Source: Escherichia coli (GTDB lineage Bacteria; Pseudomonadota; Gammaproteobacteria; Enterobacterales; Enterobacteriaceae). Taken from it: 64,000 nt of DNA. The notes below the pieces were generated by a model. The model saw only the letters and a program-made list of their open reading frames with translations, did not search any database and was not told the DNA's origin. Both the position numbers and the translations under genes were made by a program. The stretch lies in the NCBI RefSeq assembly GCF_001677475.2, contig NZ_CP015229.1. One strand, given 5' to 3'. Below, piece after piece: positions 50,550 to 54,920 of this stretch (positions are counted from its first letter, which is position 1; each line of letters starts with the position of its first letter).

Positions 50550-51884
50550 ATGACTGTAACGACTTTTTCCGAACTTGAACTCGACGAAAGCCTGCTGGAA
50601 GCCCTCCAGGATAAAGGTTTCACTCGCCCGACCGCCATTCAGGCTGCCGCCATTCCGCCTGCGCTCGATGGCCGTGATGTACTCGGTTCTGCGCCGACAG
50701 GCACCGGTAAAACGGCGGCGTATCTGCTGCCAGCGTTGCAGCACCTGCTCGATTTCCCACGTAAGAAATCCGGTCCGCCGCGTATTTTGATCCTCACCCC
50801 AACTCGCGAGCTGGCGATGCAGGTGGCCGATCATGCCCGCGAACTGGCGAAACATACGCATCTGGATATTGCCACCATCACCGGCGGCGTAGCCTATATG
50901 AACCACGCGGAAGTGTTCAGCGAAAATCAGGACATCGTGGTCGCCACGACCGGACGTCTGCTGCAATACATAAAAGAAGAGAACTTCGATTGCCGCGCGG
51001 TTGAAACGCTGATCCTCGACGAAGCAGACCGTATGCTGGATATGGGCTTCGCTCAGGATATCGAACATATTGCTGGCGAAACGCGCTGGCGTAAACAGAC
51101 CCTGCTCTTTTCCGCAACGCTGGAAGGCGATGCGATTCAGGACTTTGCCGAGCGTCTGCTGGAAGATCCGGTGGAGGTTTCTGCCAATCCGTCCACCCGT
51201 GAGCGCAAAAAAATTCATCAGTGGTATTACCGCGCCGATGACCTGGAACATAAAACCGCATTGCTGGTGCATCTGTTAAAACAGCCGGAAGCGACCCGCT
51301 CAATTGTGTTTGTGCGTAAGCGTGAGCGTGTGCATGAGCTGGCAAACTGGCTGCGCGAAGCGGGTATCAACAACTGCTATCTCGAAGGTGAGATGGTACA
51401 GGGCAAGCGTAACGAAGCGATCAAGCGTTTGACCGAAGGTCGCGTAAACGTACTGGTTGCAACCGATGTTGCCGCGCGCGGTATCGACATTCCTGACGTC
51501 AGCCACGTCTTTAACTTCGATATGCCGCGCAGTGGCGATACTTATTTGCACCGTATCGGACGTACCGCGCGCGCCGGTCGTAAAGGCACCGCAATTTCGC
51601 TGGTAGAAGCCCATGACCATCTGCTGCTGGGCAAAGTTGGTCGCTATATTGAAGAGCCAATTAAAGCTCGTGTAATTGATGAGTTACGCCCGAAAACGCG
51701 TGCGCCAAGCGAAAAGCAGACCGGCAAGCCATCGAAGAAAGTACTGGCTAAACGTGCCGAGAAGAAAAAAGCTAAAGAGAAAGAGAAGCCGCGGGTGAAA
51801 AAACGCCATCGCGACACCAAAAATATTGGTAAGCGCCGTAAACCAAGCGGAACGGGCGTGCCACCGCAAACGACAGAAGAGTAA
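50550..51884 (+). CDS. srmB: DEAD-box RNA helicase SrmB
   Basis: 444 aa; motifs [17 protein letters not shown]. Confidence 0.93.
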
Positions 51885-51888
51885 TTTC

Positions 51889-51912
51889 AATGCCGGGTTT
51901 AAGCCCGGCATT
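51889..51912. terminator. Hairpin terminator between convergent srmB and yfiE
   Basis: ATGCCGGG-TTTAA-GCCCGGCAT followed by TTGTTTTT. Confidence 0.6.
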
Positions 51913-51916
51913 GTTT

Positions 51917-52798
51917 TTATCCCGGCAAAAAACACTCTTCAACACACTGAATAAAAGTGTGCATCGCCGGGCTAACCGCTTTTCCAGCATGGTGTGCGCA
52001 CATTGCTGTAATCGTCTGCGACTGTTCGCCAAAAGGCAATTCGATTAACTCGCCGCTCGCCAATTCTTTTGCTACCGCAAAGCGCGGCAGGTAGCTGACC
52101 CCGATATTCGCCGCGACACAACGCTTGATGCTTTCGATACTTATAAGCTCAATGGTGTTTTCCACCGTGATCCGCCGCTGTCGCAGCGTGCTCTCAAATA
52201 TCTGCCGGAAGACACATTGCGGTTCATTGATAATAAAACTACAGGCGTTATGTATTCCCGGCTCAGTAAAATCGACATCTTTAATTTGCGGTGAAGCCAC
52301 CAGCACCAGTGATTGTTCACCCAACTCTCGTCGGTTCAGAGCATCATCATTCCCTACGCGATAAAAGACGCCAACATCGGCCTCATCATTCAGTAGCGCA
52401 TCACGGATCACGTAACAGTTCAGAGACTGCAACGATAAACGCACTTTTGGTGCGCGTTGCCGAAAACGCTGCAACACCTGCGGCATTCGGTAAGAAAGCA
52501 ACGTTTCGCCTGAAACAACGCGTAGTTCCCCGTCCGGATCCGACTCTTTTTTGGCAGCCTCACGAAGGGTATCCATCACTCTGGTGAGTTCATAAATGTG
52601 CGGCAGCAGCTTTTTTCCTTCGCGGGTAAGGCACATTCGTCGACCAATTTTCTCAAATAACTGGACTGAGAACTCCTGCTCAAGCTGCTGAATATGAAAA
52701 GTCACCGTCGATTGTGTGCAGCACAATTTTTGCGAAGCTCGCAAGAAGGAACCCTCTTCCATCACGGTTTTAAGCGTAATAAAACGGCGCAGATCCAT
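51917..52798 (-). CDS. yfiE: LysR-family transcriptional regulator YfiE
   Basis: ORF trimmed to MDLRRFITLKTVMEEGSF... (293 aa); divergent from eamB. Confidence 0.8.
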   Translation of the reverse strand: MDLRRFITLKTVMEEGSFLRASQKLCCTQSTVTFHIQQLEQEFSVQLFEKIGRRMCLTREGKKLLPHIYELTRVMDTLREAAKKESDPDGELRVVSGETLLSYRMPQVLQRFRQRAPKVRLSLQSLNCYVIRDALLNDEADVGVFYRVGNDDALNRRELGEQSLVLVASPQIKDVDFTEPGIHNACSFIINEPQCVFRQIFESTLRQRRITVENTIELISIESIKRCVAANIGVSYLPRFAVAKELASGELIELPFGEQSQTITAMCAHHAGKAVSPAMHTFIQCVEECFLPG

Positions 52799-52900
52799 AA
52801 CCCCAAACCTATCGAAAATATCGAATTTAGAATGTAAAAACATTCATTTTTTTTAATGTTACGTGTCGGGTACTGTCTACCAAAACAGAGGAGATAACAA

Positions 52901-53488
52901 GTGACACCGACCCTTTTAAGTGCTTTTTGGACTTACACCCTGATTACCGCCATGACGCCAGGACCGAACAATATTCTCGCCCTTAGCTCAGCCACAACGC
53001 ACGGATTTCGTCAGAGTACTCGCGTGCTGGCAGGGATGAGTCTGGGATTTTTAATCGTCATGTTGCTATGCGCGGGAATTTCGTTTTCACTGGCTGTTAT
53101 CGACCCGGCAGCAGTGCATCTGTTGAGTTGGGCGGGGGCGGCATATATTGTCTGGCTGGCGTGGAAAATCGCTACCAGTCCAACAAAGGAAGATGGGCTT
53201 CAGACAAAACCAATCAGTTTTTGGGCCAGCTTTGCTTTGCAGTTTGTGAACGTCAAAATCATTTTGTATGGCATTACAGCACTGTCGACGTTTGTCCTGC
53301 CGCAAACGCAGGCGCTAAGCTGGATAATTGGCGTCAGCGTTTTGCTGGCGATGATTGGGACGTTTGGCAATGTGTGCTGGGCGCTGGCGGGGCACCTGTT
53401 TCAGCGATTGTTTCGCCAGTATGGTCGCCAGTTAAATATCGTGCTCGCGCTGCTGCTGGTCTATTGCGCGGTACGCATTTTCTATTAA
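52901..53488 (+). CDS. eamB: Cysteine/O-acetylserine exporter (RhtB/LysE family)
   Basis: 195-aa membrane protein recognised as EamB/YfiK. Confidence 0.85.
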   Translation: MTPTLLSAFWTYTLITAMTPGPNNILALSSATTHGFRQSTRVLAGMSLGFLIVMLLCAGISFSLAVIDPAAVHLLSWAGAAYIVWLAWKIATSPTKEDGLQTKPISFWASFALQFVNVKIILYGITALSTFVLPQTQALSWIIGVSVLLAMIGTFGNVCWALAGHLFQRLFRQYGRQLNIVLALLLVYCAVRIFY

Positions 53489-53490
53489 TG

Positions 53491-53522
53491 AAAAAAGCGG
53501 AAGAGGTCGCCCTCTTCCGCTT
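53491..53522 (-). terminator. Rho-independent terminator of grcA
   Basis: GCGGAAGAGG-TCGC-CCTCTTCCGC hairpin; U-tract on the minus strand. Confidence 0.65.
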
Positions 53523-53542
53523 AGTAACTTGCTACTTAAGCC

Positions 53543-53926
53543 TTACAGGCTTTCAGTAAAGGTACGAGCGATAACGTCGCGCTGCTGTTCCGGAGTCAGA
53601 GAGTTAAAGCGAACTGCATAACCGGATACACGGATGGTCAGCTGCGGATATTTTTCCGGATGCTTAACTGCATCTTCCAGAGTTTCACGACGCAGAACGT
53701 TTACGTTCAGGTGTTGACCACCTTCAACGCGAACTTCTGGTTTCACTTCTACTGGAACTTCACGGTACTCAATGTCACCCAGTTTGCTTACTGCAACCAC
53801 TTCGTCTTCTGCAAAACCTGCTTTCGCAACGATGCAACGCGCTTCGCCTTTTTCGCTGTCCAGCAGCCAGAAAGAGTTCAGCAGATCGTCGTTAGCGGCT
53901 TTAGTAATCTGGATACCTGTAATCAT
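53543..53926 (-). CDS. grcA: Autonomous glycyl radical cofactor GrcA (YfiD)
   Basis: ORF trimmed to [14 protein letters not shown]... (127 aa); C-terminal glycyl-radical motif RVSGYAV. Confidence 0.92.
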
Positions 53927-54033
53927 GTGATGCCTCCCCGGCAAAATTATTTGATTTGTTCAGCCTGTCGCGGCCAATTGGTAAAACCATTGTTGCTTGA
54001 GTGTATATATACTCCTCAAACACCCTTGAATCT

Positions 54034-54047
54034 TTGATTTAAATCAA
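54034..54047. promoter_or_regulatory. FNR binding site in the grcA promoter
   Basis: TTGAT-TTAA-ATCAA, a perfect match to the FNR consensus TTGAT-N4-ATCAA. Confidence 0.65.
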
Positions 54048-54230
54048 TAAAAACCACACATCAAGTATGGTCGCAAATGGATTTTATTGTTTTACATCAA
54101 CTTATGCAGGTGTGAATTTTTACCAATTTACATTTTTTTGCACTCGTTTAAGTCTAAAAAATGAGCATGATTTTGTTCTGTAGAAAGAAGCAGTTAAGCT
54201 AGGCGGATTGAAGATTCGCGGGAGAGCGAG

Positions 54231-54920
54231 ATGGCAAACGAATTAACCTGGCATGACGTGCTGGCTGAAGAGAAGCAACAACCCTATTTTCTTAATACCC
54301 TACAGACCGTCGCCAGCGAGCGGCAGTCCGGCGTCACTATCTATCCGCCACAAAAGGATGTCTTTAACGCGTTCCGCTTTACAGAGTTGGGTGACGTTAA
54401 AGTGGTGATTCTCGGCCAGGATCCTTATCACGGACCGGGACAGGCGCATGGTCTGGCATTTTCCGTTCGCCCCGGCATTGCGACACCGCCGTCACTGCTG
54501 AATATGTATAAAGAGCTGGAAAATACTATTCCCGGTTTCACCCGCCCTAATCATGGTTATCTTGAAAGCTGGGCGCGTCAGGGCGTTCTGCTACTCAATA
54601 CTGTGTTGACGGTTCGCGCAGGTCAGGCGCATTCCCACGCTAGCCTCGGCTGGGAGACCTTCACCGATACAGTCATCAGCCTGATCAACCAGCATCGCGA
54701 AGGCGTGGTGTTTTTGTTGTGGGGATCACATGCACAGAAGAAAGGGGCGATTATAGATAAGCAACGCCATCATGTACTGAAAGCACCGCATCCGTCACCG
54801 CTTTCGGCGCATCGTGGATTCTTTGGCTGTAACCATTTTGTGCTGGCAAATCAGTGGCTGGAACAACATGGCGAGACGCCGATTGACTGGATGCCAGTAT
54901 TACCGGCAGAGAGTGAGTAA
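54231..54920 (+). CDS. ung: Uracil-DNA glycosylase
   Basis: 229 aa; GQDPYH and HPSPLSA motifs. Confidence 0.95.

Follow-up and report, generated by a model that had tools for sequence, protein, structure and literature searches.

The divergent yfiE and eamB genes of Escherichia coli form a co-inherited cassette whose conserved control region fits an activator-dependent promoter

Introduction

LysR-type regulators that sense an exported amino acid and activate the gene of a LysE-superfamily exporter are known from Corynebacterium glutamicum (LysG-LysE) and from E. coli (ArgP-ArgO). The lysG and lysE genes are divergent, and argP is not adjacent to argO. LysR-type activators normally occupy their DNA even when inducer is lacking. 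A further member of the superfamily, CysB, is the master regulator of cysteine biosynthesis and senses both N-acetylserine and O-acetylserine. A summary of work on Pantoea ananatis describes CefR-CefA as a cysteine efflux pump that cysteine induces, together with a neighboring regulator (Takumi and Nonaka 2016, summarised in PMC9231021).

In E. coli K-12, a ChIP-exo peak of YfiE was reported "between yfiE and eamB" with a signal-to-noise ratio of 12.5, and control of the exporter by YfiE was proposed (Gao et al. 2021, PMC8464067). A first-pass annotation of the DNA studied here, in which the LysR protein senses the substrate of the exporter and activates the divergent gene, arrived at the same interpretation as this published proposal for K-12. 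The yfiE-eamB pair is an annotated E. coli pair in an ordinary arrangement, and a regulatory link between its genes was put forward before (PMC8464067). Here, we describe the pair and its control region in a 64,000-nt stretch of E. coli DNA (the window), to which all coordinates refer, and weigh the ways in which YfiE may act on it.

Results

Layout of the locus and identity of its proteins

The first-pass annotation described a LysR-family regulator and a LysE/RhtB-family cysteine/O-acetylserine exporter placed head-to-head across a gap of roughly 100 bp. Both identities were borne out by the ORFs, Pfam, NCBIfam model NF007653 and RefSeq, and the gap measured 102 bp. RefSeq names the two genes yfiE and eamB and the genes flanking them srmB and grcA. 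The locus has the following parts:

51917-52798, minus strand: yfiE coding sequence, 293 aa plus stop (ORF list, Pfam, RefSeq annotation)
52799-52900: shared divergent control region, 102 bp (sequence and alignment)
52901-53488, plus strand: eamB (yfiK) coding sequence, 195 aa plus stop, GTG start (ORF list, PF01810, NF007653)
51888-51913: hairpin between the convergent srmB and yfiE genes, a terminator for srmB with its T-run on the plus strand (terminator scan, folding)
53495-53522: hairpin between the convergent eamB and grcA genes, a terminator for grcA with its T-run on the minus strand (terminator scan, folding)

The hairpin at 51888-51913 folded at -21.3 kcal/mol on the plus strand (z = -5.9) and at -18.7 kcal/mol on the minus strand (z = -4.7), and it has no U-run on the yfiE side. 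Corresponding values for the hairpin at 53495-53522, which has no U-run on the eamB side, were -21.2 and -22.2 kcal/mol (z about -5.3). An Rfam search of 51500-54300 gave no match at E = 1 or below. Among 5426 complete E. coli genomes, the yfiE-eamB stretch was present in 5419 at a coverage of at least 80%, with a best identity of 98.7%.

The YfiE protein (293 aa) consists of a Pfam HTH_1 domain (PF00126) at residues 3-62, scoring 62.2 bits against a cut-off of 26.6, and a LysR_substrate effector-binding domain (PF03466) at residues 87-288, scoring 151.6 bits. It aligned over its full length to solved LysR-type regulators, with 5y2v as the best match (88 bits); the closest solved relative is a cyanobacterial Rubisco-operon regulator. 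The solved structures did not include one of YfiE, and no effector could be derived from homology. YfiE is not a member of the ArgP/LysG subfamily, the characterised group of LysR regulators that control exporters, scoring 60.4 bits with model NF002964 (cut-off 197), and it fell below the cut-off of all 25 best-scoring NCBIfam LysR models listed, the best being NF040786 at 136 versus 250 bits. A longer yfiE ORF of 308 aa, which would add 15 codons from an ATG at 52843, was rejected. Since the intergenic length ranges from 102 to 113 bp in non-multiples of 3, the extra codons are not conserved; the ATG at 52843 is a by-product of the conserved ACATTC block, and the RefSeq start gives 293 aa.

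EamB matched the LysE domain PF01810 with residues 14-194, which cover positions 1-190 of the 193 in the profile (54.6 bits; cut-off 25.6). The whole protein, residues 1-195 of 195, scored 410.3 bits with the NCBIfam equivalog NF007653 "cysteine/O-acetylserine transporter" (cut-off 193). A Kyte-Doolittle scan, a crude measure run with a 19-residue window and a threshold of 1.6, gave four strong peaks versus a family expectation of about six transmembrane helices. Read by eye from the alignment, the start codon of eamB is GTG in 30 of 36 homologous loci, ATG in the three loci from Aeromonas and the one from Providencia, and TTG in a single locus from Serratia. Industrial cysteine production uses EamB.

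Co-inheritance of yfiE and eamB

In a survey of genome loci encoding a YfiE homologue with at least 63% identity, all 38 had an eamB homologue, or its remnant, next to it in divergent orientation. Wherever both start codons could be placed, which was the case in 35 loci other than the window, the gap was 102-113 bp. Four further genera, found from the EamB side, had the same divergent layout and the same range of gap lengths. The genes that flank the pair are unrelated in about a dozen genera and represent at least 8 genomic contexts, including those of Yersinia, Klebsiella, Aeromonas, Serratia, Rahnella, Dickeya, Kosakonia and Obesumbacterium; the genome scan for YfiE homologues returned no Pantoea locus. 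The yfiE and eamB genes travel as a cassette, and its spread from Escherichia to Aeromonas means that selection keeps the regulator-exporter unit and not its genomic context.

Conserved elements of the control region

An alignment of 36 control regions (the window and 35 other loci) contained no insertions or deletions between 52805 and 52885, and variation in gap length was confined to the sequence next to the yfiE start codon. The elements of the region were as follows:

52811-52825: block 1, ATCGAAAATATCGAA, which holds the T-N11-A box TCGAAAATATCGA (52812-52824); candidate YfiE recognition site
52836-52854: block 2, AAAAACATTC (the AAAACATTC block) and then a T-tract; candidate activation site overlapping the eamB -35 position
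52830-52860: inverted repeats, the overlapping dyads GAATGT-N4-ACATTC (52830-52845) and AACATT-N10-AATGTT (52839-52860)
52871-52876, plus strand: predicted eamB -10 hexamer, TACTGT
52890-52893, plus strand: eamB ribosome-binding site, GGAG, 7 nt before the GTG

Five positions of block 1 (A52811, T52812, C52813, T52821 and A52824) and seven of block 2 (A52840, A52842, T52843, T52844, T52848, T52850 and T52851) were invariant in all 36 sequences. When weight matrices of the blocks were run over the 64-kb window, both blocks were unique: block 1 scored 23.0 bits versus 14.1 for the next best site, and block 2 scored 27.7 versus 9.8 bits. Two direct copies of TATCGAA, 9 bp apart, were also found in the area of block 1, whose centre is at about -65 relative to the predicted start of eamB transcription. 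The spacing of the elements was held to the nucleotide: AAACATTC begins exactly 63 nt before the start codon of eamB, as it does in Salmonella, Dickeya, Kosakonia and Obesumbacterium, and the distances of 90, 63 and 30 nt to that codon were repeated in the 4 extra genera.

A search of 52799-52900 for a T-N11-A LysR box had been suggested in the first-pass annotation. As a raw count this search was uninformative, with 10 boxes found and 10.0 expected from composition; in the whole window there were 3692 such 13-mers against 3668 expected. A count equal to chance means that a T-N11-A search cannot discriminate unless conservation is considered. When it was, one box of the ten stood out, TCGAAAATATCGA at 52812-52824, which is dyad-symmetric (5 of 6 pairs) with T and A ends invariant in 36 of 36 sequences; the other nine were not conserved.

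The overlapping dyads at 52830-52860 are probably half-sites for a multimeric regulator. In-register complementarity over the 36 sequences was 73% and 69%; sliding the registers gave no more than 45% and 50%. RNA structure with covariation in the two inverted repeats had come into consideration because of a C>T/G>A change that looked compensatory (the window against locus L006, and L032 against L034). The counts of double-change cells were 2, a value reached in 332 of 500 shuffles, and 0, and hence showed no excess. We discarded this reading: the dyads belong to the consensus and are not a covarying RNA structure.

Promoter and translation signals of eamB

A consensus sigma-70 promoter scan of the gap (52799-52900) found no full promoter, and it gave no confident placement of a yfiE promoter. 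The predicted eamB -10 hexamer is conserved: T52871, A52872 and T52876, which are the key positions of a -10, were invariant in 36 of 36 sequences, and in four further genera a TAnnnT begins exactly 30 nt before the start codon of eamB. The sequence 17 bp upstream of the hexamer is TTTTTT, which leaves no usable -35, and there is no TG extension. From the position of the hexamer, transcription of eamB would start near 52883. In the ribosome-binding site, G52891 was invariant and neighbouring positions were at least 90% conserved. The lack of a sigma-70 consensus promoter, together with TTTTTT at -35, suggests that eamB depends on an activator, and the geometry of the control region, as far as it can be predicted, fits that of an activator-dependent LysR-type promoter.

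Published binding of YfiE

The peak at yfiE/eamB is the strongest of four YfiE ChIP-exo sites, the other three of which lie elsewhere (PMC8464067). In glucose M9 it did not carry the mark "bound by RNAP," unlike the other three sites (PMC8464067), as is expected for an uninduced activator-dependent promoter. The published peak coordinates, which are apparently in an older version of the K-12 sequence, were converted before comparison and corresponded to about 52779-52812 of the window. In this placement the peak sits on the start codon of yfiE and adjoins block 1 but does not extend across that block. Together with the co-inheritance of both genes and the conserved control region, this peak supports the first-pass view that YfiE acts on the intergenic region.

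According to a preprint, CRISPRi of yfiE changed more than 300 genes, and dhaK, dhaL and gldA went up (10.64898/2025.12.20.695731). A change in eamB is reported neither in the ChIP-exo paper (PMC8464067) nor in the preprint, and a literature search under b2577, b2578 or a newer gene name found nothing relevant. When the block weight matrices were applied to other YfiE sites (dhaK/dhaR and tnaB/mdtL), no convincing full-length match was obtained. A 22-nt pattern with 15 specified bases, AACATTCATT-N7-ATGTT, occurred once in the window, where 0.01 copies were expected; 27 bp separate it from the published yfiE/eamB peak. The same pattern was present in the K-12 dhaK-dhaR gap at K-12 positions 1250968-1250989, where it overlaps another published YfiE peak, and so is common to two of the four published sites.

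Discussion

On balance, we consider it probable that yfiE and eamB are a self-contained two-gene cassette in which a LysE/RhtB-family exporter is under the control of its LysR-type neighbor, YfiE. As we picture it, YfiE, which by analogy with its family would be a tetramer, occupies the 102-bp shared region. Its distal contact would be the T-N11-A box TCGAAAATATCGA (52812-52824), about -65 from the predicted eamB start, and its proximal contact the region of the AAAACATTC block, the T-tract and the AATGTT dyad (52836-52860), about -45 to -25. The eamB promoter, which is expected to be silent unless activated by YfiE given its conserved -10 without a -35, would stay so until YfiE, having bound a small-molecule co-inducer, shifts its position at the proximal site and brings in RNA polymerase. 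Autoregulation is probable as well, with YfiE holding down its own transcription, since the same sites lie 15-60 bp from the yfiE start codon. The co-inducer, which is the weakest step of the model, would most likely be something that EamB exports, or a near relative of it in metabolism (cysteine, O-acetylserine or a derivative). The recurrence of AACATTCATT-N7-ATGTT at dhaK-dhaR speaks for the model; the placement of the published peak beside the conserved blocks, and the failure of the block matrices to match other YfiE sites convincingly, speak against it. Other inputs to eamB exist, as its expression was down 2.4-fold upon deletion of SdiA (PMC11311028).

The first-pass annotation had noted that the effector of YfiE cannot be read from sequence, and this is true: homology gives no ligand, and the neighbors of the cassette in other genera are mutually unrelated and offer no clue. 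It is possible, and we hold it as a tentative alternative, that YfiE controls eamB but that the signal and the physiological substrate are neither cysteine nor O-acetylserine but another amino-acid-like or reactive metabolite, the exporter label reflecting a side activity upon overexpression. EamB was discovered via overexpression in a producer strain, and reviews call its physiological substrate unclear. When overproduced, K-12 YfiK does export O-acetylserine and cysteine and confers resistance to azaserine, but deletion of yfiK had no phenotype (PMC10821248). [quoted passage not shown] The YfiE sites at dhaK/dhaR and beside tnaB/mdtL and the shifts in dha and gldA expression upon yfiE knock-down likewise favor a different signal, as do the resemblance of YfiE to CysB, which is confined to the DNA-binding domain, and the lack of a sulfur-metabolism gene linked to the cassette in any genus examined. 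Against it stand the export and azaserine resistance seen with overproduced YfiK, the altered H2S dynamics in LB of eamB mutants and the example of P. ananatis, known here by description only, in which a cysteine-inducible pump has an adjacent regulator.

We regard it as unlikely that YfiE serves here as a repressor or a pure autoregulator, keeping eamB and/or yfiE off until an inducer releases it, with no activation step. The rise of dhaK, dhaL and gldA upon CRISPRi of yfiE is repressor behavior, at least at the dha locus, and the converted ChIP-exo peak over the yfiE start codon is in a position suited to autorepression. YfiE was also bound at yfiE/eamB in glucose M9 with no flagged RNA polymerase signal; occupancy without inducer is, however, normal for LysR-type activators. 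Moreover, repression is unlikely to be needed at an eamB promoter whose -10 is conserved but which has TTTTTT at the -35 position and lacks a TG extension, and the two conserved blocks, centred at about -65 and -35 and constant in their spacing, are arranged as in LysR-type activation.

A further idea, that one type of YfiE operator (AACATTCATT-N7-ATGTT) would operate at both eamB and dhaK-dhaR, so that the exporter would be induced as dihydroxyacetone kinase is repressed, is in our estimation a long shot. The pattern shared by two YfiE sites and the rise of dhaK and dhaL upon knock-down make such a dual-target reading compatible with the evidence, but at yfiE/eamB the pattern stands apart from the published peak. 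If it were true, a reactive carbonyl or a carbonyl-thiol adduct (e.g., a cysteine-derived thiazolidine) could take the place of free cysteine or O-acetylserine as signal or substrate; this link of the YfiE signal to carbonyl-thiol adducts is pure speculation.

That the adjacency is incidental, with YfiE mainly regulating distant genes (dhaKLM and others) and the blocks serving another chromosomally encoded factor, has very little chance of being right. In its favor, more than 300 genes changed upon yfiE CRISPRi, three of the four ChIP-exo sites are elsewhere and the local peak is off-center from the conserved blocks. Against it, no other YfiE peak is as strong as the local one, and yfiE and eamB stayed together in all 38 + 4 loci and at least 8 unrelated contexts out to Aeromonas, with nucleotide-exact block spacing; the simplest reader of a site that moves with a cassette is the DNA-binding protein which that cassette encodes. 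For control of eamB by YfiE, the intervals 52811-52825 and 52836-52860 and the -10 at 52871-52876 are exact targets for footprinting, reporter mutagenesis and biosensor design.

Among known systems, the closest is the pair of K-12 itself, yfiE (b2577) and eamB (yfiK, b2578), which is at the same locus as in the window, with srmB, grcA and ung as neighbors. Between the window and K-12, YfiE and EamB are 97.3% and 97.4% identical in amino acid sequence, yfiE and eamB are 95.5% and 92.9% identical in nucleotides, and the 102-bp gap is 96% identical, so that the window carries only an allelic variant. K-12 has a 176-bp, REP-containing insertion between srmB and yfiE that the window does not. CysB belongs to the same superfamily as YfiE, and its ligand comes from a pathway whose intermediates EamB can export. 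The two proteins, however, align only in the DNA-binding region (residues 21-144, 33 bits), and YfiE scored 74 bits with the CysB-family NCBIfam model (cut-off 402); a match of this extent is no basis for transferring the ligand of CysB to YfiE. CefR-CefA (PAJ_3027/PAJ_3026), compared here by its summarized description only, resembles yfiE-eamB in that a regulator gene lies beside that of a cysteine efflux pump induced by the compound it exports, and this described behavior is what the first-pass annotation proposed for YfiE and EamB. YfiE is not an orthologue of ArgP or LysG (NF002964, 60.4 bits versus 197). Nevertheless, yfiE-eamB is like LysG-LysE and ArgP-ArgO in combining a LysR-type regulator with a LysE-superfamily exporter, its genes are divergent as are lysG and lysE, and the eamB promoter looks activator-dependent.

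The yfiE-eamB locus

The ORFs, domains and annotation bore out the gene names and coordinates of the first-pass annotation, and the gap that it had put at roughly 100 bp was measured at 102 bp.

Features of the locus
Ends 51917, ATG at 52798, minus strand: yfiE, 293 aa; LysR-type helix-turn-helix at residues 3-62 and LysR substrate-binding domain at residues 87-288
52799-52900: yfiE-eamB gap, 102 bp
52901-53488, plus strand: eamB (also called yfiK), 195 aa, GTG start; LysE-type translocator

The eamB product matched the NCBIfam cysteine/O-acetylserine transporter equivalog over its whole length, scoring 410 bits (cut-off, 193). When all complete E. coli genomes were searched by megablast with 51700-53700, 5419 of 5426 carried the stretch, and its annotation, yfiE and eamB with srmB and grcA on either side, is the same as in K-12. 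The locus is thus the known yfiE-eamB. Mechanical ORF calling began yfiE 15 codons earlier (308 aa), at an in-frame ATG at 52843 (52841-52843). This start was rejected, as the extension is not conserved and its ATG belongs to a conserved piece of DNA: it reverse-complements the CAT of the conserved ACATTC block, so the regulatory site produces it incidentally and translation does not begin there. Each convergent gene pair is separated by one strong hairpin, at 51888-51913 (srmB/yfiE) and 53495-53522 (eamB/grcA), both of about -19 to -22 kcal/mol (z of about -5 to -6). The U-run falls on the side of srmB or grcA, the highly expressed neighbours, so that yfiE and eamB have no canonical intrinsic terminator of their own.

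Co-inheritance of yfiE and eamB

A scan for YfiE homologues, using one genome per species, returned 40 loci. An eamB homologue or remnant lay divergent and immediately upstream in all 38 loci whose YfiE homologue was at least 63% identical, and the two distant matches (38 and 27% identity) had no eamB partner. The gap measured 102-113 bp in the 35 loci that permitted placement of both start codons. Likewise, a divergent LysR-type gene was found 102-113 bp upstream of the EamB-homologue start in Salmonella, Dickeya, Kosakonia, and Obesumbacterium. The genes srmB, grcA, and ung were found beside the pair only in Escherichia, Citrobacter, Cedecea, two further Enterobacteriaceae, and Salmonella. 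Flanks differed in Yersinia, Klebsiella, Kluyvera, Aeromonas, Serratia, Rahnella, Providencia, and others, and by Pfam were mutually unrelated (MFS transporter, acyl-CoA dehydrogenase, RNase T-like exonuclease, NUDIX, Old Yellow Enzyme-type oxidoreductase, GNAT acetyltransferase, IS110 transposase). Since the pair is kept while its flanks change, the constant unit is a two-gene cassette, and this constancy argues strongly, if indirectly, that yfiE and eamB are functionally linked.

Additional family members occurred near some cassettes. In Yersinia vastinensis (locus L016, 3880-4506, plus strand) a second LysE-family gene (208 aa) follows the end of the yfiE homologue by ~850 nt on the same strand, so that LysE-type exporter genes lie on both sides of the regulator gene. 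In Aeromonas tecta, the far side of eamB holds a second LysR-type gene (L025, 416-1345, plus strand).

Anatomy of the control region

The 36 aligned intergenic sequences had a mean column identity of 70% and sharply conserved islands. No indels occurred between 52805 and 52885, and length variation was confined to the stretch between the yfiE start codon and island 1.

Conserved elements of the gap
52811-52825: island 1, ATCGAAAnnnTnGAA; A, T, C, T52821, and A52824 invariant
52836-52854: island 2, AAAACATTC followed by a T-tract; A52840, A52842, T52843, T52844, T52848, T52850, and T52851 invariant
52871-52876: -10-like TACTGT; first T, second A, and last T invariant
52890-52893: GGAG, followed by the eamB start codon

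The first T, second A, and last T are the bases that matter most in a sigma-70 -10 hexamer. In the four genera reached through EamB (Salmonella to Obesumbacterium), AAACATTC and TAnnnT kept the window's distances to the start codon, beginning 63 and 30 nt upstream of it, respectively. Weight matrices scored 23.0 bits at island 1 and 27.7 bits at island 2, compared to 14.1 and 9.8 bits, respectively, for the best match elsewhere in the 64-kb window. A consensus promoter scan found none in the gap; with TTTTTT 17 base pairs upstream of the -10 and no TG extension, the eamB promoter looks dependent on an activator. Transcription would start at ~52883, ~7 nt past the -10. Relative to this putative start, island 1 is centered at about -65 and an AACATT-N10-AATGTT dyad at about -34, a spacing typical of the recognition and activation sites bound by LysR-type activators. 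RNA structure in the inverted repeats was considered and rejected: two sequence pairs hinted at compensatory change, but a formal count revealed no covariation beyond that of shuffles, indicating protein-type dyads. An Rfam search gave no match.

The first-pass annotation had proposed a search for a T-N11-A LysR box. The raw count did not discriminate, with 3692 such 13-mers in the window (3668 expected) and 10 in the gap (10.0 expected). When conservation was considered, one box stood out: TCGAAAATATCGA (52812-52824), in which both T-N11-A ends were invariant in 36 of 36 sequences and five of six dyad pairs were matched.

YfiE binding sites

ChIP-exo of tagged YfiE in glucose minimal medium gave four sites (Gao et al., 2021; PMC8464067), with published peak coordinates that seem to refer to an older K-12 sequence version. 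Upon conversion, the peak in the dhaK-dhaR gap fell exactly on the palindrome ATGTTTCATAGTGAAACAT, as its center. The same conversion put the local peak at ~52779-52812, over the yfiE start codon and merely abutting island 1. This offset from the islands is our main reason for caution about the bases touched by YfiE. A 22-nt pattern from island 2, AACATTCATT-N7-ATGTT (52839-52860), has a single match in the window, where 0.01 would be expected, and another in the K-12 dhaK-dhaR gap (1250968-1250989, minus strand), overlapping the YfiE peak; in that region (NC_000913.3 1250954-1250989; 2455-2490 of locus L004), bases adjoining ATGTTTCATAGTGAAACAT complete the pattern. Its presence in both places favors island 2 as part of a candidate YfiE operator. 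CRISPRi of yfiE alters the expression of over 300 genes and raises that of dhaK, dhaL, and gldA (2025 preprint, 10.64898/2025.12.20.695731); the shared pattern and the rise of dhaK and dhaL hint that dhaK-dhaR is a second direct YfiE target.

Damaged copies and allelic variation

The cassette may be damaged in some lineages, although draft sequencing errors are possible. The yfiE gene is frameshifted in the type-strain draft of E. albertii NBRC 107761 (L039, 254-1131) and twice in Symbiopectobacterium 'North America' (L043, 3001-3865), where eamB is full length in a single unbroken reading frame. In Providencia alcalifaciens (L038) a frameshift interrupts eamB and the match to yfiE ends at residue 242, and in P. 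burhodogranariea (L041) the cassette is reduced to a remnant.

Nucleotide identity to K-12 was 95.5% for yfiE and 92.9% for eamB, compared to 98.5% for srmB and 98.2% for grcA, and the differences were mainly synonymous (30:8 and 37:5 codons, respectively). Of the 5431 records from complete E. coli genomes that matched the 2-kb stretch, 1778 were only 90-95% identical to it. The pattern points to purifying selection on a cassette that either has old allelic lineages or has recombined. The query matched at a median of two places per genome; we suspect the second to be pflB, whose 3′ end is homologous to grcA. The srmB-yfiE spacer is 32 nt in the window (51885-51916) and 208 nt in K-12 (NC_000913.3 2714231-2714438; L003), where the extra sequence holds two inverted REP-like elements, GCCTGATGCGCTACGCTTATCAGGCCTAC and GTAGGCCGGATAAGGCGTTCACGCCGCATCCGGCA. 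In other Escherichia loci the srmB-to-yfiE match distance was 38, 214, or 390 nt, which marks the spacer as a variable REP insertion site.

Proposed regulation of eamB by YfiE

The first-pass interpretation, that YfiE controls the exporter, had already been proposed from ChIP-exo binding (Gao et al., 2021; PMC8464067), and it is a reasonable one. The YfiE-eamB link itself is well supported by co-inheritance and the published peak, and we hold it with considerable confidence; the remainder is only partly supported. The explanation that we favor overall, with somewhat more confidence than doubt, is that YfiE occupies the shared control region, would activate the weak eamB promoter when bound to a co-inducer, and would restrain its own expression.

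The function of EamB is known from overexpression (O-acetylserine and cysteine export, azaserine resistance), and its deletion is without phenotype (PMC10821248). Reviewers call its physiological substrate unclear (PMC9231021), a multicopy cysteine-resistance screen in E. coli yielded ydeD and yhaM and not the yfiE-eamB locus (PMC5423876), and none of the publications found by literature search names a YfiE effector. A signal or substrate other than cysteine/O-acetylserine is a tentative possibility, compatible with the favored model. Activation of eamB by YfiE is what we infer from promoter anatomy. The data of PMC8464067 on YfiE are binding data only, and the yfiE/eamB site is the sole one of the four without an RNA polymerase-bound flag; eamB goes unmentioned in the CRISPRi preprint and is 2.4-fold lower upon loss of SdiA (PMC11311028). 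A purely repressive role for YfiE appears improbable next to the activator-dependent look of the promoter. That the genes adjoin by accident, against the constancy of the cassette, is scarcely credible.

Comparison with known systems

No solved structure of YfiE was found in a structure search, and its best solved relative was a cyanobacterial Rubisco-operon regulator. YfiE fell below the curated cut-off for all of the best 25 NCBIfam LysR models listed, and alignment with CysB was limited to the DNA-binding domain. It lies outside the ArgP/LysG subfamily (60 bits; cut-off, 197), yet in its way of working YfiE-EamB may be likened to LysG-LysE and ArgP-ArgO. In Pantoea ananatis, CefR-CefA is described in a review as an efflux pump that cysteine induces, with its regulator next to it (PMC9231021); compared by description only, it and YfiE-EamB each have a regulator adjoining an exporter.
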